Virus record (IMG/VR): IMGVR_UViG_3300015608_002982
Span: 25,286-89,285 of that record
DNA length: 64,000 bases
From: a virus
Taxonomy: Duplodnaviria > Caudoviricetes
Direction: 5' to 3' (one strand)
Under the pieces are notes generated by a model. It saw nothing but the letters and a program-made list of their open reading frames with translations, ran no database searches and had not been told where the DNA came from. Positions 9,661 to 52,607 of the stretch are shown here, in pieces; positions within the stretch are counted from its first letter, which is position 1; each line of letters begins with the position of its first letter. Made by a program: the position numbers and the translations under genes.

Positions 9661-10707
9661 TTATGTTTTATATAATTTATAAAATGTTTTTTTTGATATT
9701 TTTAGCTTTTTTATTATGTCAGAGTTTTTAAATCCAACTCTTTGTAGCTTCAATATCTCATCTTTTACTATTATATATTTTTCTTGCCTTGTTAGTCTAT
9801 CTTCGTCTATGTTATCCCATTTTCTCTTCATAATAGGCAAATTTAATCTAAGGCATTCTTTTTTTATTTTCCTTAAAAGTATGTTATTTGATATTGTTAA
9901 AATTGAATATCCGTCATTTCCTATTCTAGAATATGTTTTTTCTTTATTAATCAAGAAATATTCATATAGAAAATTTTCAATAAATAATAAATTATTTAAC
10001 CATGATTTATGAAGATGTATTCTTATATTTGAATCCTCTCTTTTATACACTTTTGATATATTACCATCACCATCAATGATTCCAATTATCAGAGAGAATA
10101 TCAATTCTTTATTGAATGTGTATAAATTGAAGTTCGGAGGATTATATGTCTTTTTTGGTCTAATCTGAAATTTTTCACATATTTTAGGACAAATTTCTTT
10201 ATTTTGTATAGAAACTAAGCACATTTTATCATTGATTATTATTTTCGAACATTCAATATAATTTTTAAACTTTTCTAAATGGTTAATATCCTTAGTGGAT
10301 AATATTATTTTTATTCTTTCGCCGTTTAATATAGTACCATCTGCTAGTATAAATCCTATCCAATAAAAACTCTCTAATTCATCATTAATCAAAATAGACA
10401 TATCAGAATCTCTGAGAAAATCATAACTCCTACTTAAATTTAGGCTATTTGATTTTAACTTTATTGAATCCCAACTCCTGTTTGGTAATAGATTTACTAA
10501 ATCCTCTTTGATCATATTTTCGTAATTTTTTACAACTATATCTATTTCATCTTCTGTCCATTTTAGACAGCTTTTAATTTTATTTGGTAGTAACTTTTTT
10601 CTTTTTTTCCTTATTGAATTCCAATTTCTATTAATTAATATTCTCAATAAGTCTTCTTTACTTTCATAAGTCTTTAAAATCTCTATTTCATCTTCTGTCC
10701 ATTTCAT
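9661..10707 (-). mobile_element. Free-standing LAGLIDADG homing endonuclease with N-terminal Myb/SANT-like repeats and C-terminal HTH
   Basis: KWTEDEI repeats x2; YWIGFILADG and LIIGIIDGDG motifs; start refined to ATG 10707 (TTATATATA at 10728-10736). Confidence 0.8.
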
Positions 10708-10775
10708 ATAAAGTCTAATATTTATTGTATATATAAAATTTTGTCCTCTTCCTTTCATGTTAATCAAAAATATAC

Positions 10776-10787: not shown

Positions 10788-11396
10788 ATGAAAAATATAT
10801 GGTTCACAAGTGATACTCACTATTCTCATTCCAACATAGCCGGTGAGTCTGTTTCTCGTTGGCAAAGAGGTTACAGAGATTTTAACTCTGTTCATGAAAT
10901 GAATATGGCACTTGTTAATGGTATTAATAAATATGTAAAGGAAGATGATATTCTTTATCATCTTGGTGATTGGAGTTTTGGCGGAGTTCATAATATATTT
11001 CAATTTAGGAACCTCATTATTTGTAAAAATGTACATTTAATTTTAGGTAACCATGATCAACATATTGTTGATAAAGAAATAAAATATCATGACACCTCAT
11101 TTAACCCAATTGAACTTTTTTCATCTGTTCAAGATGTTTTAACTTTGAATATAGGTAAGACAAGATTATTTCTTTCTCACTATTCACACCGAGTTTGGTT
11201 GGGTAGTCATAAAGGTGTTATACATCTTTATGGCCACTCACATGGTTCAATTCCTGATTATGGAAAGTCAATGGATGTTGGAGTTGATGTTGCTTTTAAG
11301 AAATTTGGTGAGTATCGTCCATTTAACATTGGTGATATTACTAACATAATGTCTAAAAGAGATATAGAGAAGATAGACCATCACGGGGATTTGTAA
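10788..11396 (+). CDS. Calcineurin-like metallophosphoesterase
   Basis: SDTHYSH, HLGDW, GNHD, HLYGHSH, DVGVD motifs. Confidence 0.9.
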   Translation: MKNIWFTSDTHYSHSNIAGESVSRWQRGYRDFNSVHEMNMALVNGINKYVKEDDILYHLGDWSFGGVHNIFQFRNLIICKNVHLILGNHDQHIVDKEIKYHDTSFNPIELFSSVQDVLTLNIGKTRLFLSHYSHRVWLGSHKGVIHLYGHSHGSIPDYGKSMDVGVDVAFKKFGEYRPFNIGDITNIMSKRDIEKIDHHGDL

Positions 11397-26942: not shown

Positions 26943-29876
26943 TTATAAGTCTTTTTGTTCAGATCTATATTTATCGTATCTATTTGCTATTTCAACTAAG
27001 AATTTATTTCTAACTATATCTTCGTTTGTAAATTCATGCATATATAAATCATTCATTCCGTCTACCATCTTTATAAAGTCATTATATCCTGAGTCTCTTC
27101 TTTTAACATCATATTGTGATGTATCTCCCATCATTACTGCTTTTGAATCCTTACCTAAACGAGTTACCCATAACATAAGTTGTTTAATTGAAGCATTTTG
27201 GCAGTTATGAACCAATATATTTTCAACAAAATAATTGTGATTACCATCAACCTCTATGTTATATACATAATCTGGTTCAGAATCTTCAATATTTACAATC
27301 TCGGTTGTTGATAAATTTTTGTTATATGATATTCTATATAAACTATTATCAAAATTATTAGTATCACTATTCAATTTATAAGACATTGATGGGTGTATAT
27401 ATTTTGATATAATATCAAACATTTTTAAAGAGTTAATTCTATTTAAACATAGTATTACACCTTTTGATGTTTTATAAATACTACTATCTAAACTGAATTT
27501 ATTTTTCAATATTTTAGATAATACATTGACTTCCTCGTAACTCATGGAATTGGTTGAGAATGTTACAGACCCACTTGATTTTGAAATAGATCCATCATCC
27601 ATATACCATATAGCTAAAGTTCTTTCTGTGAACCATCTACTTATCTCACTACTTATGAACTTCTTAGACCCATTATACATAGAGTTATAAAACTCATTTG
27701 ATATATTTATAGATTTTGTTTGAAATCCACACTGCTCTTCACCTGTATATCCAGACTTTAAAGAATTTCTATATGATGATATTTCACCAAAAATATTTTT
27801 TTTGAAATTCATATAGTCATATTGTTTAATAGAATGATTTGTTAGTATTCTATATGACTTTTTAACTTGCTTATTTTGTAGTAATGATGAATCACCCAGA
27901 CACATTCCTAAAATTATATCATATGAGTCATTTGTAATAATTGTGGAATCATTTGTGTTATAGCCTTTATACCTACATATACTATCACCTATGTTTAAGT
28001 TGTCAACTTCAATCCATTTAATTTCTCCATCTTTAAATATCGCAAATGGATGATTTTTTGTTGTCTTTATAGGTTTTATTCTATCCTTTGTATATATTTT
28101 AGTGATATTTTTTATACCATTTTCAAAAACTCCAGTTACTTTTCTATTTTCTAAAATTTTCATATCTTCATTCCAACTAGAAACATACACATCTTTACCT
28201 AATTTAAACATATTAACGATATCTTTTATTCTAAGATAATTAAAAGATCCTCTAGTTCCATGTTTTGTAACAACCCTTGTGTCACCCGTGAAACACTCAT
28301 CTAACAACATTATGCAATTGTCATAAGTTGATCCTCTCATGTAAGCTAAAGGTTCAAAACAAATTTCTTCAGTAGCAAACAAAAAGTCAATTGTTGGTTT
28401 TCCCAAAATTTTACAAAATGTTGTGTAATATGATTGTTTGTATGGATCTATTTTTTCTGCAATGTTACCAGGAAGTGCTCCTAAGTTTTCACCACTTTCC
28501 TGAATTGGCTTAGTGATAATGATTTTTTCTATTTTTTTATCAGCTAATAATGCTAGAGCTGTGTAACAGGTTGTATATGTATTGTGTGTTACAATATAAT
28601 CATTTGTCAAATAGAGATGAGATGGATTATCCACACTAATACACTGAGCTTTCTTTTTACCAATTAGTTTAGCAGATACTATATATCTAGTTGGTTTATA
28701 TTTTGACTTTGGTTTTACTAATTTAAATTTTCTATTTAATGAAAATGGATTTATTTCCGAATTCATTTTTATAGTTATTTTATATGACGTTTTTCCATAT
28801 ATTTTTTCACCAGATTTAATATAGTAACTATCTGATGGAGTGTGATCTGTTGCAACTCCACCTAGTGATTGAACCAACTCTTTAACATCATTGATTAATC
28901 TTTTGGATGTTGATGAGAAGCTTACAAAGGTACCATCTTTAGATACAGATCCGTCCGAATCCATCAGTCCTCTTAATATAGATATTCTATTTTCTATAGA
29001 ATTGAATTTATAACAATCCGGGATAAATTTTTCTTGTGAGAGTTTATTCCAAAGTCCTATTTTAGTTAAATATTGTTTAATTTTGTTTTCTCTTACTTCG
29101 GGTTCTTTTACCAATGAGTAGTCATAACAACCTCTATAAATTACAGAAATTTCTTCATCAATTAAATTTTCAATACGTTCTACTATCTCTAAATCAGATG
29201 TCGTGAAATTAACACTTCCTCTAAAACATCCATCTCCAATTAGGAATCCCATAATATATGGATCTATGTCTACTTTTATTTCGTTAAATTGAACAGGCTT
29301 TGTAATAGGAATTGTGTGGTTTATCCTACCTCTTTTAGTATAGAGTGTTTCTATAATTTCCGAAGTTGATTTAACACTTCCTTCCTTTTCATCTTTATGT
29401 CTACTTCTTTTACCATTTATGGTTTTAGTCCATTTCCTATTATTTCTATCACTTTCGGTTTGAGTAAACCATAAATGGTCACCACAGCACTCTACTTTAG
29501 AACTATCAGAAAAAGTTAGCTCCCAAATATCTTTTTCACCTTGTGGATAAACTCCCGTGACAATTGTTGGTAAGCCATCAACAGAGATAACTCTATCACC
29601 TATTTGTATTTCACCCATCTTAACCCAACCATTTGGTGTTAAAATTGGTGAATCTAATGGTTGGGCTTTGCTTGTCCCGGCTGGCCCATGAACTACTGAC
29701 AAAATATTGTTTCTTATTCCTTTGTATAAGAGTTGTTGTTTATCAGATAAATGTACATTTGATTTTTGAAATTCCTCTTTAGTTAAAGAGTTCTTTTTTC
29801 TAAGATTCTTTTTGTATTCAAATTCTTGAATTCCGTCCTGAATCTGACCGTTAAGTTCGCTTTTGTACTTGCTCAT
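26943..29876 (-). CDS. phoH: PhoH-family ATPase interrupted by two inteins (spliced product about 251 aa)
   Basis: GPAGTSK|T, ITKP..ESGENLGALPG, EPLAYMRG, LLDE|CQN, LWVTRLG, GDTSQYD. Confidence 0.93.
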   Translation of the reverse strand: MSKYKSELNGQIQDGIQEFEYKKNLRKKNSLTKEEFQKSNVHLSDKQQLLYKGIRNNILSVVHGPAGTSKAQPLDSPILTPNGWVKMGEIQIGDRVISVDGLPTIVTGVYPQGEKDIWELTFSDSSKVECCGDHLWFTQTESDRNNRKWTKTINGKRSRHKDEKEGSVKSTSEIIETLYTKRGRINHTIPITKPVQFNEIKVDIDPYIMGFLIGDGCFRGSVNFTTSDLEIVERIENLIDEEISVIYRGCYDYSLVKEPEVRENKIKQYLTKIGLWNKLSQEKFIPDCYKFNSIENRISILRGLMDSDGSVSKDGTFVSFSSTSKRLINDVKELVQSLGGVATDHTPSDSYYIKSGEKIYGKTSYKITIKMNSEINPFSLNRKFKLVKPKSKYKPTRYIVSAKLIGKKKAQCISVDNPSHLYLTNDYIVTHNTYTTCYTALALLADKKIEKIIITKPIQESGENLGALPGNIAEKIDPYKQSYYTTFCKILGKPTIDFLFATEEICFEPLAYMRGSTYDNCIMLLDECFTGDTRVVTKHGTRGSFNYLRIKDIVNMFKLGKDVYVSSWNEDMKILENRKVTGVFENGIKNITKIYTKDRIKPIKTTKNHPFAIFKDGEIKWIEVDNLNIGDSICRYKGYNTNDSTIITNDSYDIILGMCLGDSSLLQNKQVKKSYRILTNHSIKQYDYMNFKKNIFGEISSYRNSLKSGYTGEEQCGFQTKSINISNEFYNSMYNGSKKFISSEISRWFTERTLAIWYMDDGSISKSSGSVTFSTNSMSYEEVNVLSKILKNKFSLDSSIYKTSKGVILCLNRINSLKMFDIISKYIHPSMSYKLNSDTNNFDNSLYRISYNKNLSTTEIVNIEDSEPDYVYNIEVDGNHNYFVENILVHNCQNASIKQLMLWVTRLGKDSKAVMMGDTSQYDVKRRDSGYNDFIKMVDGMNDLYMHEFTNEDIVRNKFLVEIANRYDKYRSEQKDL
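27204..28295 (-). mobile_element. Class 1 intein with LAGLIDADG endonuclease at Walker B of PhoH (364 aa)
   Basis: CFTGDT start, TTKNHPF block B, ILGMCLGDS and IWYMDDGS, ends VHN followed by C. Confidence 0.92.
28581..29666 (-). mobile_element. Class 3 intein with LAGLIDADG endonuclease in the P-loop of PhoH (362 aa)
   Basis: Ala1 (AQPLDS), DHLW, AQCISV, VTHN followed by T (WCT triplet); MGFLIGDG and LRGLMDSDG. Confidence 0.9.
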
Positions 29877-45605: not shown

Positions 45606-45614
45606 TAATATATA
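45606..45614 (+). promoter_or_regulatory. TAATATATA phage promoter motif
   Basis: 5 nt upstream of ATG 45620. Confidence 0.55.
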
Positions 45615-45619
45615 CTCTA

Positions 45620-45955
45620 ATGACAAATGTTTATTTAATATGTGCAGAATTTGAAGGTAGAAGACTGTATAAGATAGGTTACACAAGACGTGATGTCTCT
45701 AAAAGAGTTAAAGAGTTAAAGACTGGAAATGGTTCTGACTTATACATTATAAACTTTTTTAAGTCTAAATGGGGAACTAAAATTGAGGCACAATTACATA
45801 GAACATTTAAAAATAAAAAAATAAATGGTGAGTGGTTTGATTTAACCGATGAAGATGTAAAGTCTTTTATGGAAAAATGTAAATTAACACACGATATGTT
45901 AGAGTTAATAACTACTAACAACACTTACTATTTAGAAACTGGTAAACTATATTAA
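45620..45955 (+). CDS. T5orf172/MUG113-type GIY-YIG-superfamily protein
   Basis: YKIGYT...KRVKELKTGN, IEAQLHRTF, INGEWFDL. Confidence 0.8.
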   Translation: MTNVYLICAEFEGRRLYKIGYTRRDVSKRVKELKTGNGSDLYIINFFKSKWGTKIEAQLHRTFKNKKINGEWFDLTDEDVKSFMEKCKLTHDMLELITTNNTYYLETGKLY

Positions 45956-46267: not shown

Positions 46268-46633
46268 ATGAACGAAGAATCTAAAATAATAACCGCTGAT
46301 ATTGTAGATTACTTAGGTAAGTATGAGAATGGTGTTCTTGTACTATTATCTATTGGCTACAAAGATACATTTACAGAAGGAACAATATACTATTCTGATG
46401 AAATGTTAGCATTAACTGTAGATGAATCTATAGAACAGGATCTTGGAACACCTATTGAATTATGGGATGGCTACCGAGATTTACTTATTTCTATACTTAA
46501 AAAAGTAGTACCTTATAACGAAATAATCAATAGATTAGATGAGATCGACTTTGCTGATTACTTTAAAGATAAAGATGAGGATACTCAGGTTGGTGAAGAT
46601 ATAGATAATAGTGATATTAAACAACCTGAGTAA
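46268..46633 (+). CDS. Hypothetical acidic protein
   Basis: 121-aa ORF in operon. Confidence 0.6.
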   Translation: MNEESKIITADIVDYLGKYENGVLVLLSIGYKDTFTEGTIYYSDEMLALTVDESIEQDLGTPIELWDGYRDLLISILKKVVPYNEIINRLDEIDFADYFKDKDEDTQVGEDIDNSDIKQPE

Positions 46634-46742
46634 GCGCACTCCTTACATTCTATTTTTTCTAATATACACATTTTTTGCAAATTTTCATAACAAATTAAAA
46701 TATTTTAACTATAACTATATATTAAAAAATAACAAACATGTA

Positions 46743-47027
46743 ATGATAATAAGTGAGATATGTATAAGAGGCTTTAAATCTTTTGGTAATAATGAGTCCG
46801 TTCTGAAATTAAATACTGAAAAAGGAGAATTGATTCTTCTTGTGGGAAATAACGGAGCCGGAAAATCACTCATTCCTACTACTGAGATTGAGGTTGAAAT
46901 TAATTTAGAAAATCTAAAATTAAAGGATTTTAATAATTTTTTGGAAATAATGGGGAGGGAAAGGATATATATTGAATATATAAAAGAAAATAACTATTCA
47001 CTATATGAGCAATATATTAATCAATGA
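46743..47027 (+). CDS. sbcC: gp46/SbcC N-extein (41 aa, to Walker A Lys) fused to split-intein N-fragment (46866..47027)
   Basis: MIISEICIRGFKSFGN...LVGNNGAGK then intein block A-like SLIPTTEIEV; start refined to ATG 46743. Confidence 0.8.
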   Translation: MIISEICIRGFKSFGNNESVLKLNTEKGELILLVGNNGAGKSLIPTTEIEVEINLENLKLKDFNNFLEIMGRERIYIEYIKENNYSLYEQYINQ

Positions 47028-48546
47028 AAAACAACTAGAAGATTATCTTTCAGATTTTCATCCAGTTAAAAAAAATGAAATTTTAGAAAAATTCAAAGAT
47101 TTTAATTTTAATTGTGGTAAATTTTCTTTTAGAGATAAAATGAAGAGAATTATATCAATGCCTAAATTTGGCAAAAGGACAATTAATTACTGGGTAAGTA
47201 GGGGATGGTCAGAGGAAGAAGCTTTATTAAAAAGAGTACCTGATAACAGAGATCCTGAAACATCACCAATGAATAAATTTTTTTGGATAAAAAGAGGACT
47301 TACAGAAGAAGAAGCTTTATTAAAATTAAAATCACAAAGAAAATCTAATAAGGAATATTGGACGAAAAGGGGATTTTCAGAAACCGAAGCATTGCAAAAA
47401 TCAGTTGAATTTCAAAAAGACTCTAATTCAGCATTTATTAATAGAATTAACTCAGATATGGATTACCGAGAATTGATAAATTCTAAAAGGAATAATAATA
47501 AAAAATATTGGATCAATCTTGGGTTTTCAGAAGAAGAGTCGATAAAAAAAGTATCGGAGAGACAATCGACATTTTCTTTAAAAAAGTGTTTGGATAAATA
47601 TGGTGATATAGAAGGTCATAAAATTTGGCAAAATAGACAGAAAAGATGGCAAAAATCTCTCTTGCTTAGTTTATATAATGGTAAAGACAATAAGGATTCA
47701 AAGACTATAGAGTTCTTCAAAGGAAAATATAAAGAAAATTGGATAGACCATTACTTTAATAAGATATCATTTAAAGAAAAAGATAAAATATTGTTTTTAA
47801 CATCATTTTATAATTATAAAGATTTAATAGACTCATTAATTGCCGATAAATTGAAATTAGTAGAAATATCATCAATTATTCGGTATAAAATTATACAAGA
47901 GATATATTCTTGTACAATAGATGATATGTTTGAATATTTACATAATAATTATGAAAAATATTCAAAAACACCTGAATATTATCATAAAAATTTCCCCGAT
48001 TGGATAGAAAGATTTATAAATGACAATTCTTTTAAAAATAAAAATGAAATAAAAAAATTATTAAACTTCAAGGATTATAAAGAAATGATTATCTACATGA
48101 TTGATAATTATAAAATTACTGATATAAATATTTATCTACAAAGTAAATTGATATCATATTTTTATAATACAAATCATAAGGAAATGTTCAACTTTTTAGT
48201 AAATAGTGACCCAACAATAAAATCAAAATATGGACATATTAGATATTTTAATGGACACATTTGTCGAAGTGATTCGGAATTTTTATTGGCAAAGTTTTTA
48301 CTTAATAATGATATAAAATATGAATATGAGAAGAGATATAAAAATACATTAAAAAGATGTGATTTCTATCTTATAGATTTTGATCTTTATATTGAATATA
48401 CAGGAATGAAGAAAAATGAAATTTGTAATAAGAAGTATAAAGAGAAACAGAAATTTTGTCTAGAAAATAATATCAATTGTATATTTTCTAACAATATTCA
48501 AGAAATAAAAAATAAAATATTAAATGAAATTAAAATTAACAATTGA
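47005..48546 (+). mobile_element. Free-standing homing-endonuclease-like gene separating the split intein halves
   Basis: Four YWxxRGxSEEEA repeats, two about 70-aa helical repeats, C-terminal RSDSE...RCDFYL...YIEY PD-(D/E)XK domain; GAATATATA at 46974-46982. Confidence 0.75.
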
Positions 48547-50521
48547 ACAATTGAACAAACTTCAAGAATCAATTAAATTAATCGATAATTATGAAATAAA
48601 TGTTTCAACTGAAAATGGATTTAAAAAAATCAAAGCTGTTGGTGTAACAAGTAGAAACTCAGAAAAAATAAGAATTAAAACAAAGGATTTTGAATTGGTA
48701 GGGTCTCCATTTCATAGAGTAAAATATCAAAATAATTGGTTATATCTAAAAGATATTAAAATAGGAGATAAAGTAAATACAAAAAATGGAATACAAGAAA
48801 TTTTAGATATTAGTTTTGATAATAATAAAGAAGACTTATGGGATATAGAAGTTGATGGACATGAATATTATTCAAATGGAATCTTAAGCCACAACTCTTC
48901 TCTACTAGACTCATTTGATTACACACTTTACGGTAAAGTAAGAGGTCGTAAAAAAAGATGGGCTACTTTATCAACACTACCAAATAGAATTAATGGCGAA
49001 CTTCTTAATAGAATCAAATTTGTTTCTAATAGTACAGAGGTTGAAATAAAAAGAGGTATCTCACCAAGCGTACTTGAGTTGTGGGAGAATGGAGTTCTTA
49101 ATGAAAGAGCTGGTAAAGCCAATGTAGATGAAAAGATTGAGAATTACATTGGAATGGATATTGAGACATTCAAATCATTTATTTCAATGTCTATTAATGA
49201 TTTCAAAAATTTTATTTCATTATCAAACGAAGAAAAACAACTTCTTCTTGATAAGTTATTTAATCTTGAAGTCATCAACATTCTCAACAGTATCTTGAAA
49301 GATATTGCTAAAAATAATAAAGTAAGAGCAGCTTCATTTGATGCTGAAATTAGAACTTTAGATGATTCAATTGCCTCTATTAAAAGGTCAATTGAAAAAG
49401 CACTTGAAAGAGAAAGACAAGAAGCACAATTAGCACTTGAAAGAGAAAAAGAAGATATACAAGCTGAGATTGATAGAATTACAAATGAAATGAATTCTAG
49501 AAAAGATGAGTATAAAGCTCTAAAAGAAAAGATTGATAAAATCAAAGAAAAAGATGCTGAACTCGTTGATGAGATGGATAAGGAAAAAAGACAGTTAATT
49601 AACTGTCAAAATGATATCAGAAATGTTCAAAAAGAATTAGACTTGTATGATTCTGGAAAATGTCCGACCTGTAAAACAGATTTCAACTCTGAACACTTTT
49701 CTAATTTAAGAACTACTTTAGAAGAAAAGAAATTAGGATTTGAAAATATCAAACTTGAAATTGAAGCAAACATTACTAAAGTGAAAGAAAGACAAACTAA
49801 GTTAAAATCACTTTCTGAATCAACAACAACTGCATTTAATGATTTAAGTTATTTATTAAAGACTCACAAGTCTGAAATTGACAAACTAAATCAAAAGAAA
49901 GCATCACAGACCGTTACTGTTAATACAACTCCTTCTGTTAATATTCAAGAGTTTCAAAATACAATTGAAGAGCTTGAAGAAAAGAAAATAGTATCAACTG
50001 ATAATATAAGTGTTTGTAAAGAAAAAGAACTTTACTACAAAGAGTTAAATCGTATCTTTGGTGAAGATGGTGTTAAGAAGTCTATTATTGCTGGTATTAT
50101 TAAGCCAATAAACCATTTTATTTCTGAAAATGTTAAAAAGATGGGACTTCCATTTGAAGTTAAATTAGATGAGACTTTTACAGCTGAGATTAAACAATTA
50201 GGTTCATCAATTGAACATGACTCACTTTCTACCGGTGAGACTAAAAAAGTAAATATTAGTATTTTAATTGCTTATCTAAAGCTAATTAGAACTAAACGAC
50301 ATATCAATATTTTGTTCTTAGATGAGGTTTTTTCATCAATTGATATCGAGGGTATAGATTCTATTTTGGCACTCTTAAAATCGTTTGCAAACGATTATAA
50401 CATCAATATCTTTGTTGTACATCATGCTATTTTGAATCAAGAAATGTTTGATAGAATATTAAAGATTAATAAAGAGGTTTTCTCTTCAATAGAAGAAGTA
50501 AATTTGGATTATGCAAGTTGA
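48524..50521 (+). CDS. sbcC: Split-intein C-fragment (48524..48895, 124 aa) fused to gp46/SbcC/Rad50-like C-extein
   Basis: LTIEQL, VSTENGFKKI, SPFH, WDIEVDGHEYYSNGILSHN|SSLLD; zinc hook CPTC, LSTGE signature, LFLDEVF, VVHH. Confidence 0.9.
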   Translation: MKLKLTIEQLNKLQESIKLIDNYEINVSTENGFKKIKAVGVTSRNSEKIRIKTKDFELVGSPFHRVKYQNNWLYLKDIKIGDKVNTKNGIQEILDISFDNNKEDLWDIEVDGHEYYSNGILSHNSSLLDSFDYTLYGKVRGRKKRWATLSTLPNRINGELLNRIKFVSNSTEVEIKRGISPSVLELWENGVLNERAGKANVDEKIENYIGMDIETFKSFISMSINDFKNFISLSNEEKQLLLDKLFNLEVINILNSILKDIAKNNKVRAASFDAEIRTLDDSIASIKRSIEKALERERQEAQLALEREKEDIQAEIDRITNEMNSRKDEYKALKEKIDKIKEKDAELVDEMDKEKRQLINCQNDIRNVQKELDLYDSGKCPTCKTDFNSEHFSNLRTTLEEKKLGFENIKLEIEANITKVKERQTKLKSLSESTTTAFNDLSYLLKTHKSEIDKLNQKKASQTVTVNTTPSVNIQEFQNTIEELEEKKIVSTDNISVCKEKELYYKELNRIFGEDGVKKSIIAGIIKPINHFISENVKKMGLPFEVKLDETFTAEIKQLGSSIEHDSLSTGETKKVNISILIAYLKLIRTKRHINILFLDEVFSSIDIEGIDSILALLKSFANDYNINIFVVHHAILNQEMFDRILKINKEVFSSIEEVNLDYAS

Positions 50522-50836: not shown

Positions 50837-52348
50837 TTAATTACAATCGTAACAACTTACTTCACCTCGTCCATCACAGTTAGAACATTCTTCTCTACCT
50901 GAACCACCGCAATCTGAACACTCAGATTTTCCGGTTCCACTACATTCAGGACAATCTACTTCATTACCATCGTCATCAGTAGTTTTACCGGAACCATCAC
51001 ATTCACCACAATCAACTTCACCATCACCATCACAGTTATTACAATCGTGACTTCCTCTACCATAACAATCATCACATTCTACAGTTCCTCTACCACCACA
51101 AGTTTCACAATCACCAACATCATATCCACCACCTGTGTCTTCTAAGGTAATAGCACCACCTCTGTTTTCATTTGATAAAATACCAGTACCTTCTTTATAA
51201 TATTTAAGAGTATCTAAGTAAGGATAATGTCTGTAATTTTTCTGATCTAAATTTACTGTTAAATCTAAATCAACTATTGTACCATCTGGTGCAATACATC
51301 TACCGATATCTGAGCTACTATTGTGATATTTTGCATACCAACCATTTTCTTTAGCAAATTCTCTAAATAAGTTTACATCAGAGTCATTAATAGTATAAAT
51401 TCTATCCATGAACTTTTTACCATCGTTTAGAGTCCATAAAAGTGATCTACCTACAATTTTACTATCATCATCCTGAGATTTGAAAATAACTAAACTAACT
51501 TGATTTGGATTAGCTGTATAAATTTCTAACCAAGATTCATCGGCACCTGCCATACAAGAAGAGCCTAAAGTACCTCTTCTTTCATAGTAGTTTTTACTAC
51601 CATACCAGTAATGTATATCATCACCACTTACTACATTAAAATAAGAAAATTTATCATTTAACTTATCTATAGTTGCCTTGAATAAATTTACAAATGCTTC
51701 AAAGTCTTTATCTAAAATGTCTGTAACACCGGCTGATCTTAATAATGCTCTTGCTCCTCTACCAACTTTAATATCTTGTCTATTTTTAGACCAAACTTCT
51801 CTCATTAAAGCAGATACTGTATCAATAAGCCTTAATTTATCTTGGTTATAAACACCTTGTCCTAATTCAACTTCTTGATTATCTGTGCCAGTACCACCAG
51901 TCCATTTAATCCAGAAATATGTTTTACCTGAAGTTTCAGATGTTACCTTAGCTACAACTGTTCCAATATCTCTTGAGTTTGGCTTATAAGGTTCTGATCC
52001 TTCTTCATATGTATATCCTAATTTATCAAATATTCCTTTATTAGTATCTTTGTGTTTTAACCAACCACCACCAGAACCAGTGAACCTATAAAGTTCTTTT
52101 GTTTGACCTAATATTTCTTGAGCTTTTCTATCAGGAATAAAGTTTAACGAGTCATTTTTATCAGATGTCACATCAAAATAATTTGATTGTACAGGTAAGT
52201 CTTTATTTTCAATTTCTAATAATTTTTTAGCTACAGGGCTATCTATTTTAGACAAGGCTCTTCTTAATTTATCAGAGTAAATAACATTAGATTCTAGTAG
52301 TAAGAAATCTAAAGATTCATTTATGAAATCGGAATATTTTTTAATCAT
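50837..52348 (-). CDS. CTS-like SCM/GRSLLW/MDRIY-family protein with C-terminal DnaJ-type zinc repeats
   Basis: MIKKYSDFINE; SSCM, GRSLLW, FMDRIY, YPYLDT; seven CxxCxGxG plus terminal CxxC. Confidence 0.65.
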   Translation of the reverse strand: MIKKYSDFINESLDFLLLESNVIYSDKLRRALSKIDSPVAKKLLEIENKDLPVQSNYFDVTSDKNDSLNFIPDRKAQEILGQTKELYRFTGSGGGWLKHKDTNKGIFDKLGYTYEEGSEPYKPNSRDIGTVVAKVTSETSGKTYFWIKWTGGTGTDNQEVELGQGVYNQDKLRLIDTVSALMREVWSKNRQDIKVGRGARALLRSAGVTDILDKDFEAFVNLFKATIDKLNDKFSYFNVVSGDDIHYWYGSKNYYERRGTLGSSCMAGADESWLEIYTANPNQVSLVIFKSQDDDSKIVGRSLLWTLNDGKKFMDRIYTINDSDVNLFREFAKENGWYAKYHNSSSDIGRCIAPDGTIVDLDLTVNLDQKNYRHYPYLDTLKYYKEGTGILSNENRGGAITLEDTGGGYDVGDCETCGGRGTVECDDCYGRGSHDCNNCDGDGEVDCGECDGSGKTTDDDGNEVDCPECSGTGKSECSDCGGSGREECSNCDGRGEVSCYDCN

Positions 52349-52418: not shown

Positions 52419-52607
52419 ATGCTATTAGTAAAAGTAGAAGGAACAACAATTGAAAAAGCTCTTAAAACACTTAAAAGAAAGTGGGATAGAACAAAAGCTA
52501 TGAGAGAGTTGAGAGAAAGAAAAGAGTTTGTTAAGAAGTCGGTTAAAAGAAGAGCCGAGATTAACAAGGCTAAGTATGTTCAAGAGAAATACGGTAATAA
52601 TGATTAA
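52419..52607 (+). CDS. rpsU: Ribosomal protein bS21
   Basis: IEKALKTLKRK...LRERKEFVKKSVKRR. Confidence 0.88.
   Translation: MLLVKVEGTTIEKALKTLKRKWDRTKAMRELRERKEFVKKSVKRRAEINKAKYVQEKYGNND

Follow-up and report, generated by a model that had tools for sequence, protein, structure and literature searches.

Gene organization of the locus

We analyzed a 64,000-nucleotide (nt) stretch of phage DNA from the IMG/VR record IMGVR_UViG_3300015608_002982, which is hereafter referred to as the window. The locus under study lies at positions 46743-50521 and holds three open reading frames (ORFs) on the same strand (+) and in three different frames. We interpret them as a gene for a Rad50/gp46/SbcC-like ATPase that carries a split intein and has been fractured by the gene of a putative homing endonuclease (Table 1). 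The first ORF (the N-gene) would encode the N-terminal extein and the N-terminal intein fragment (IntN), and the third (the C-gene) the C-terminal intein fragment (IntC) and the remainder of the ATPase, while the ORF of 513 amino acids (aa) between them overlaps each of its neighbors by 23 nt.

The locus had previously been described in a sequence-only reading, and every statement made there on the structure of the N-gene and the C-gene, on their motifs and on the serines at the two splice positions was reproduced. Intein residues 1 and +1 are both Ser, and Ser1 is Ser42 of the N-gene, directly after the Walker A Lys. The claim that neither intein fragment contains Cys was borne out by counting: there is none in the 53 aa of IntN or in the 124 aa of IntC, and Cys is present in the exteins (Cys7 in the N-extein and residues 361, 380, 383 and 498 of the C-gene).

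The C-gene matches PHROG 77 from residue 124 onward (E 9e-63), and the translated C-extein displays a zinc hook, CPTC (C380/C383), an LSTGE signature and an LFLDE Walker B motif; the Pfam matches of the C-gene to Rad50_zn_hook and SbcC_Walker_B fall under the curated cut-offs. Given the presence of Walker A, a CxxC zinc hook, the ABC signature and Walker B, the host protein is predicted to be a Rad50/gp46/SbcC-like ATPase. The records closest to this phage belong to uncultured phages with genomes of 630-640 kb and uninterrupted gp46-like genes, not to classical T4-like phages.

Table 1. Features of the fractured locus in the window and, in the last rows, of variant ORFs at related loci
Feature	Position	Strand	Size	Description
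N-gene (ORF 1)	46743-47027	+	94 aa	Extein of 41 residues up to GNNGAGK; intein part of 53 residues from SLIPTTEIEV to the stop
N-extein, Rad50/gp46/SbcC-like ATPase (predicted)	46743..46865	+	41 codons	Walker A GNNGAGK at its end; matches SMC_N, AAA_23 and PHROG 77 (residues 1-45)
IntN (predicted)	46866..47027	+	53 codons + stop	Core strand at residues 1-12 (block A Ser1, Thr6)
IntN sub-parts				Two-helix insert at residues ~17-44; residues 47-53 overlap the start of the endonuclease gene
Middle ORF (ORF 2)	47005..48546	+	513 aa	Free-standing putative homing endonuclease
Nuclease domain of the middle ORF (residues ~405-513)	48217..48543	+		Predicted restriction-endonuclease-like fold
Putative mobile cassette	47005..48535	+	~1.53 kb	Left border at the endonuclease ATG, right border 12 nt past the IntC ATG; both placed on the window by homology from L011 (split) and L007 (contiguous)
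C-gene (ORF 3)	48524-50521	+	665 aa	124-residue IntC starting MKLKLTIEQL, then the C-extein
IntC (predicted)	48524..48895	+	124 codons	Strand-helix unit KLKLTI-EQLNKLQES; also carries VSTENG
IntC motifs				Block B S61-P62-F-H64; block F DLWDIEVDGHEYY (D104-L-W-D-I-E-V); block G S122-H123-N124
C-extein (predicted)	48896..50521	+	541 codons + stop	Starts with Ser+1 (SSLLDSF); SSLLDSFDYTLYGK follows SHN
Middle ORF, ...IWESEY... type, L017	4763-5860
Middle ORF, ...IWESEY... type, L048	4018-5235
Middle ORF, ...IWESEY... type, L056	1889-3112
Middle ORF, ...IWESEY... type, L077	4737-5963
N-half with short Cys1 IntN, L048	3769-3990
N-half with short Cys1 IntN, L056	1639-1860
N-half with short Cys1 IntN, L077	4501-4716

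Extein junction

Uninterrupted homologs of the host protein read GNGK-SSLLESFEY at the insertion point. When the two exteins of the window are joined, the resulting 582-aa sequence is 89.0% identical, with 0 gaps, to an uninterrupted 582-aa IMG/VR protein (L018); the 30 residues across the junction are identical, as is the N-extein over the 15 residues preceding it. The exact junction against intein-less homologs confirms the earlier statement that joining would restore GAGK-SSLL, and the intein is, as far as this alignment tells, an in-frame insertion whose removal would restore the host protein. The 80 best IMG/VR loci comprise 69 without an intein, 6 split loci with Ser1 and 5 split loci with Cys1.

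Identity, fold and break position of the intein

Pfam and PHROG searches gave no intein match for IntN or IntC, and the intein was identified by sequence and profile searches of the PDB and by folds. In phmmer searches of the PDB, IntC residues 4-125 aligned with chain positions 25-143 of the VidaL intein (6vgv, E 4.4e-8), and IntC also matched gp41-1 and NrdJ-1; when whole contiguous proteins were searched in the same manner, the N-part of the intein was left unaligned. With Ser1, the block B His, a terminal His-Asn and Ser+1, the locus holds what is predicted to be a class 1 intein.

Contiguous versions of the same intein exist in proteins of 712-740 aa, such as P0128, in which an IntN-like segment runs directly into an IntC-like segment. 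The intein of P0128 (L007:3693-4223) was modeled in place of the window's own two fragments. The model had a mean predicted local distance difference test score (pLDDT) of 92.8 and matched VidaL in Foldseek (E 2.8e-10); its Z scores were 20.6 to NrdJ-1, 20.2 to VidaL (142 of 145 residues aligned) and 14.7 to the PolB16 intein. The predicted structure of this contiguous relative is the Hedgehog/intein (HINT) fold. Its elements follow one another as Ser1, a strand at residues 7-12, helices at ~19-29 and 35-41, a strand-helix unit (KLSIS-IDKLNKLQNKI) and an all-beta body.

The cassette entry point falls between model residues 49 and 50, after the second helix and just before the strand at 50-54 and the helix at 55-65, only a few residues away from where VidaL is naturally split. 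On the model, the break is N-proximal (atypical) and located at the S1 site, as in VidaL and PolB16, with block B in IntC; S1 is the name given in the literature to the split common to these two inteins (PMC13014065). The sequence and fold matches to VidaL and the invariant catalytic residues described below agree with the proposal of a naturally split, Cys-free Ser1/Ser+1 intein with an N-proximal break.

The length of IntN requires a correction of that proposal. Known atypically split inteins have an IntN of 15-37 aa (PMC13014065), and the IntN of the window, at 53 aa, lies outside this range, with 53-66 aa in its Ser1 relatives. Its core of ~12 residues is followed by a two-helix insert of ~30 residues and then by a tail of 7 residues, whose codons overlap the nuclease gene. 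The sequence-only reading was accordingly right about a core of ~13 residues and only partly right in calling IntN short; at 53 aa, IntN would be inconvenient as a synthetic peptide in its natural form.

Family size and conservation

More than 100 clusters of N-halves of 94-107 aa span the whole 94 aa of the N-gene, including the tail, with identities of 44-99%, and the matching C-halves of ~645-665 aa are also present in the protein database. In an alignment of 55 N-halves, T47 and I49 are invariant and Y79-E82, L87 and Y88 nearly so (N-gene numbering), while intein position 1 is either Ser or Cys. Among 31 C-halves, S61-P62-x-H64, D104-L-W-D-I-E-V, S122-H123-N124 and S125 (the +1 residue) are invariant. 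Thr42 and Ser46 of IntC are invariant as well. The Ser1 lineage and its Cys1 sister lineage occupy the same insertion site and share Ser at +1. Absence of Cys is common among the relatives in the Ser1 lineage, applying to 37 of 43 IntC and 53 of 64 IntN sequences.

Shorter forms of the N-terminal part also occur. In the contiguous allele P0173, only ~27 residues precede the strand-helix unit, which is the shortest insert noted. A third form of the gp46 split intein, with Cys1, has an IntN of only 31-32 aa (CLSPDTEIEI and one helix) and an IntC of 121 aa; this L048-type IntN provides a natural short-IntN comparator.

The IntC of the window also retrieved many terminase C-halves (PF03237) that begin with an IntC ending in YSNGILSHN|S (E 1e-9 to 1e-6), which places the gp46 intein in a broader clan of phage inteins with an N-proximal split.

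Putative homing endonuclease between the halves

The model of the middle ORF (pLDDT 87.6) is helical over residues 1-400, a region with four YWxxRG(W/F)SxEEA-like repeats, and forms an alpha/beta domain at residues 405-512. Searches of Pfam and PHROG found no family for this ORF, and a library of 1.8 billion proteins contains 1752 representatives of it at E<=1e-3. In the family alignment (A5), the invariant positions are S422, Y445, D453, F454, E464 and G467, with E425 nearly invariant (>=90%).

Two lines of evidence point to a nuclease domain. The family profile matched T7 endonuclease I (2pfj and 1m0d, E 0.006-0.011), pairing E425, D453 and E464 with E20, D55 and E65 of the T7 enzyme. The predicted domain structure resembles the catalytic domain of I-Bth0305I (3r3p), with a Foldseek probability of 0.99 and, as the best structural match, a Z score of 9.0 and a root-mean-square deviation of 2.7 over 90 of 98 residues; the next matches were a DUF559-type protein, TnsA and Vsr (1vsr, Z 6.5). 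Meaningful Foldseek matches were obtained at the domain level only, the full 513-aa model yielding poor E-values, and a search of the ESM Atlas with the domain returned weak leads only (DUF559 and Phage_endo_I). The profile match to T7 endonuclease I and the I-Bth0305I-like fold are in line with the earlier assignment of a free-standing endonuclease gene between the two halves. Alignment A5 contains no conserved His or later Asp corresponding to the EDxHD motif, and because these two residues are not conserved we classify the product as a putative homing endonuclease of the restriction-endonuclease fold, outside the EDxHD family.

In four related loci (L017, L048, L056 and L077), the middle ORF has the YWxxRGxS repeat region in common with that of the window and ends in a different C-terminal type (...IWESEY...), for which Pfam and PDB sequence searches gave no match. 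These variants suggest that nuclease domains have been swapped at one insertion site.

Before-and-after allele pair and recurrence of the split

Two related loci, one with the contiguous intein gene (L007) and one with the split gene (L011), are 98.9% identical over 3.8 kb on one flank and 98.6% identical over 2.4 kb on the other. The two differ by an insert of 1537 bp in L011, which has the nuclease ATG as its exact starting point and extends 12 nt beyond the IntC ATG. The ~35 nt directly upstream of it contain a cluster of differences from L007, and the peptide encoded before the insert, YIEYIKENN.xLYEQY, is nearly invariant in split alleles and variable in contiguous ones. The cluster of differences fits a short tract that traveled along when the cassette recombined; it fits divergence at the site targeted by the nuclease just as well. 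When proteins are compared, P0168 (contiguous) and P0054 (split), which have their first 70 residues in common, form a second pair of this kind.

The split recurs widely. All 16 split loci, which were independently assembled, have an ORF of 365-519 aa between the two halves. The spacing of the ORFs varies among them from 28 nt apart to a 44-nt overlap, and the start and stop codons are conserved.

Proposed trans-splicing and its alternatives

We consider that the Rad50/gp46/SbcC-like gene carries a class 1 split intein fractured by a nuclease cassette and that the fragments trans-splice, and we assign this reading, which is built on sequence comparisons and predicted folds, a probability of roughly 0.85. 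The intein interrupts the P-loop, separating the Walker A Lys from the Ser that follows it. The 1.5-kb nuclease cassette would in turn divide the intein gene in the two-helix insert, just before the first HINT strand-helix unit, a place that corresponds in topology to the split of VidaL. Two polypeptides would be made, one of a 41-aa extein and the 53-aa IntN and the other of the 124-aa IntC and a 541-aa extein. The fragments would come together and adopt the HINT fold, trans-splicing would proceed through oxyester intermediates, and the product would be an ATPase of 582 aa whose GNNGAGK-SSLL P-loop is intact. The nuclease, for its part, would cut cassette-free alleles and spread by recombination, a short flanking tract being carried along.

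Several points weigh against this reading. The fold was predicted on a contiguous relative that is 68% identical to the C-gene of the window in the shared part (alignment A4). The 'NX'-motif His, which is preceded by Arg or Lys, has been reported to be critical and conserved in Ser1 inteins (PMC10189870). The window intein has no His before block B H64, and neither do 33 of its 43 Ser1-lineage relatives, the remainder having one at scattered positions. The lack of a conserved NX His is the one point in these sequences that a specialist might find unexpected. The nuclease lacks both a Lys at the position of T7 endonuclease I Lys67 and the EDxHD His, and its activity is therefore not assured. 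Finally, selection could be gauged only coarsely: pairwise ratios of the proportions of nonsynonymous and synonymous differences (pN/pS) in five loci, which in themselves speak for constraint, came to 0.43 (IntC), 0.56 (IntN), 0.38-0.56 (nuclease) and 0.15-0.28 (exteins), and they are rough upper values, since pS is near saturation (0.4-0.77).

The alternative that survives best, although we regard it as unlikely, is that both halves are made without being spliced; the insertion would then inactivate the gene, or the intein fragments would serve as non-covalent docking domains. Non-covalent assembly of the ATPase-like pieces may be likened to that of the split NrdA of phage Aeh1 (PMC3045599). 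This alternative would accommodate the missing NX-motif His, a residue described as critical in Ser1 inteins (PMC10189870), and the minority state of the intein allele, 69 of the 80 IMG/VR loci being without it. However, the strong constraint on both exteins (the pN/pS of 0.15-0.28 given above) speaks against this alternative. Assembly without splicing is unlikely because the break is inside the P-loop, between Lys and Ser, where 177 foreign residues should destroy nucleotide binding, and because all residues of the splicing chemistry are invariant (with Ser or Cys at position 1) even where halves share as little as 44% identity, a degree of conservation that docking by itself would not demand.

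A single continuous product, made either by removal of the middle segment as an RNA intron or by two frameshifts that would turn the nuclease into an internal domain of a large intein, appears very improbable. Group I introns with nuclease ORFs are frequent in phage genes, and the 23-nt overlaps between the three ORFs could be taken to favor continuity. However, an Rfam search of positions 46400-49000 found no family at E<=1, group I and II introns included, and the coding sequences flanking the segment are intein halves, for which an RNA intron would have no use. Frameshifting is opposed by the use of three frames and by the conserved start and stop codons and variable spacing in the 16 loci, a pattern unlike that of a conserved slippery site. 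That mistakes in sequencing or assembly broke up an intein gene that is in fact contiguous can be practically dismissed: the record comes from a metagenome and is incomplete (a fragment of 89,285 bp, 45% complete according to CheckV), but the same three-ORF layout occurs in independent JGI, ENA and Logan assemblies, in 16 of 16 split loci and in more than 100 protein clusters, and the extra 1.5 kb encodes a conserved family with the 1752 representatives mentioned above.

Returning to the trans-splicing interpretation, we tentatively propose a further idea that we hold to be possible rather than probable. The locus may represent a large natural family of fully Cys-free, N-proximally split Ser1/Ser+1 inteins that activate Ser1 without an NX His, the supposed hallmark of oxyester inteins, and the two-helix extension of IntN might act as a capture or solubility module. 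The Cys1 sister lineage, the contiguous alleles with short inserts and the variants with a 32-aa IntN would form a comparator series.

Other features of the window

A second intein-like match lies at ~29514-29639 (-), inside a 993-aa open frame, and corresponds to IntC residues 68-109 (E 6e-4). A free-standing 368-aa ORF at 9661-10767 (-) contains tandem KWTEDEI repeats and a LAGLIDADG_3 domain (E 1.2e-5). The genome fragment appears to be rich in inteins and homing endonuclease genes. The 368-aa ORF is arranged back-to-back with a 202-aa metallophosphoesterase-like gene at 10788-11396. The latter was considered as the gp47/Mre11 partner of the gp46-like protein and set aside; its product is a small phosphoesterase whose Metallophos match is under the Pfam cut-off, and it is not evidently the partner.

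Near the locus, positions 52419-52607 (+) encode a 62-aa homolog of ribosomal protein S21 (PF01165, E 9.9e-11, above the cut-off), and an S21 gene also adjoins the gp46 locus in two relatives (L005 and L006). The 503-aa protein encoded at 50837-52348 (-) has a C-terminal run of CxxCxGxG-like zinc-knuckle repeats and only weak Pfam matches (Anti-TRAP and BSD2_CRD); it is kept at the same position in a 642-kb relative (L001 6944-8476).

The motif TAATATATA was found 22 times in the window against 6.5 expected, a count reached in 0 of 100 shuffles, and one example at 45606-45614 (+) is just upstream of a T5orf172/MUG113 gene that starts at 45620. It may be a phage promoter-like element. A nuclease promoter inside the IntN coding sequence was also considered, as GAATATATAAAAG at 46974-46986 resembles TAATATATA; the 13-mer (<=2 mismatches) is not enriched, and this idea stays a speculation.

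Significance and comparison with known systems

Split inteins without cysteine allow protein ligation under oxidizing conditions and alongside thiol chemistry. The locus described here adds a second natural family of Cys-less, atypically split inteins, unrelated to the first and much larger, with hundreds of sequence variants. Both the Ser1 lineage and its Cys1 sister belong to the family, with contiguous alleles beside split ones, and it is a possible protein-ligation tool; if Ser1 is indeed activated without an NX His, it would supply a comparator series for Ser1 activation and a short, redox-insensitive labeling intein. The pair L007 and L011 is an unusually clean natural snapshot of a free-standing homing endonuclease fracturing an intein gene, as Dassa et al. 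(2009) proposed. For phage biology, the arrangement would imply that protein trans-splicing within the P-loop can be a requirement for a recombination ATPase that is near-universal in phages.

Fractured genes that combine split inteins with a free-standing homing endonuclease were described by Dassa et al. (2009; PMC2677866). The present locus shares with those systems the order of an N-extein and IntN ORF, a same-strand endonuclease ORF with overlapping ends, and an IntC and C-extein ORF, the occurrence mainly in phage DNA from environmental metagenomes, and a host gene for an enzyme of DNA metabolism. It differs from them in its host, Rad50/gp46/SbcC, in the N-proximal split as opposed to the canonical endonuclease-domain site, and in its nuclease, which has an E/D/E constellation instead of a GIY-YIG or Vsr-like EDxHD motif (PMC2677866). 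The text of Dassa et al. (2009) does not mention gp46, SbcC or Rad50 (PMC2677866), and full-text literature searches yielded no description of an intein in any of these three proteins.

The closest intein is VidaL T4Lh-1 (6vgv), which is atypically split after strand beta2 (the S1 site) and has an IntN of 16 aa. It gave the best sequence match and one of the best fold matches, and has block B in IntC and Ser at position 1, like the window intein. VidaL is reported (Bachmann and Mootz 2015) to use Cys at +1 and hence to be cysteine-dependent. Unlike VidaL, the window intein has Ser+1, no Cys, an extra two-helix insert of ~30 residues and an IntN of 53 aa.

PolB16 OarG (Pasch et al. 2023; 8cpn) is a natural, atypically split class 1 intein with Ser1 and Ser+1, and in all of these respects it resembles the window intein (PMC10189870). 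It differs in residing in a PolB polymerase and in having an IntN of 15 aa, an IntC of 168 aa and two non-catalytic Cys, and it relies on the NX-motif His, whereas the window family has no conserved NX His (PMC10189870). PolB16 OarG has been called the only natural cysteine-less intein that is also atypically split, and it performs poorly (PMC13014065). The novelty of the locus had been overstated in the sequence-only reading, a natural, atypically split Ser1/Ser+1 intein having been in print since 2023 (PMC10189870). A further comparison concerns AceL-TerL and GOS-TerL: the TerL inteins are split after helix alpha1 (the S2 site) and are cysteine-dependent (PMC13014065), and the terminase C-halves retrieved by the window IntC have IntC-like N-termini that may correspond to the published TerL inteins.

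As for the nuclease, the middle ORF resembles I-Bth0305I (3r3p) in its bipartite organization, in which a putative DNA-binding region at the N-terminus precedes the nuclease at the C-terminus (PMC3239194). The composite catalytic motif of the EDxHD family consists of E, D, x, H and D (Taylor et al. 2011; PMC3239194), and the Glu, the Asp and the second Glu 11 residues past the Asp in the middle ORF match the conserved positions described for this family (PMC2677866). Unlike I-Bth0305I, of which the C-terminal domain (167-266) was crystallized, the nuclease of the window is much longer (513 aa), lacks the conserved EDxHD His and final Asp, and has its best sequence-profile match in T7 endonuclease I. 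Taken together, the locus is a new and widespread example of an established type of system; its host protein is new, the concept is not.

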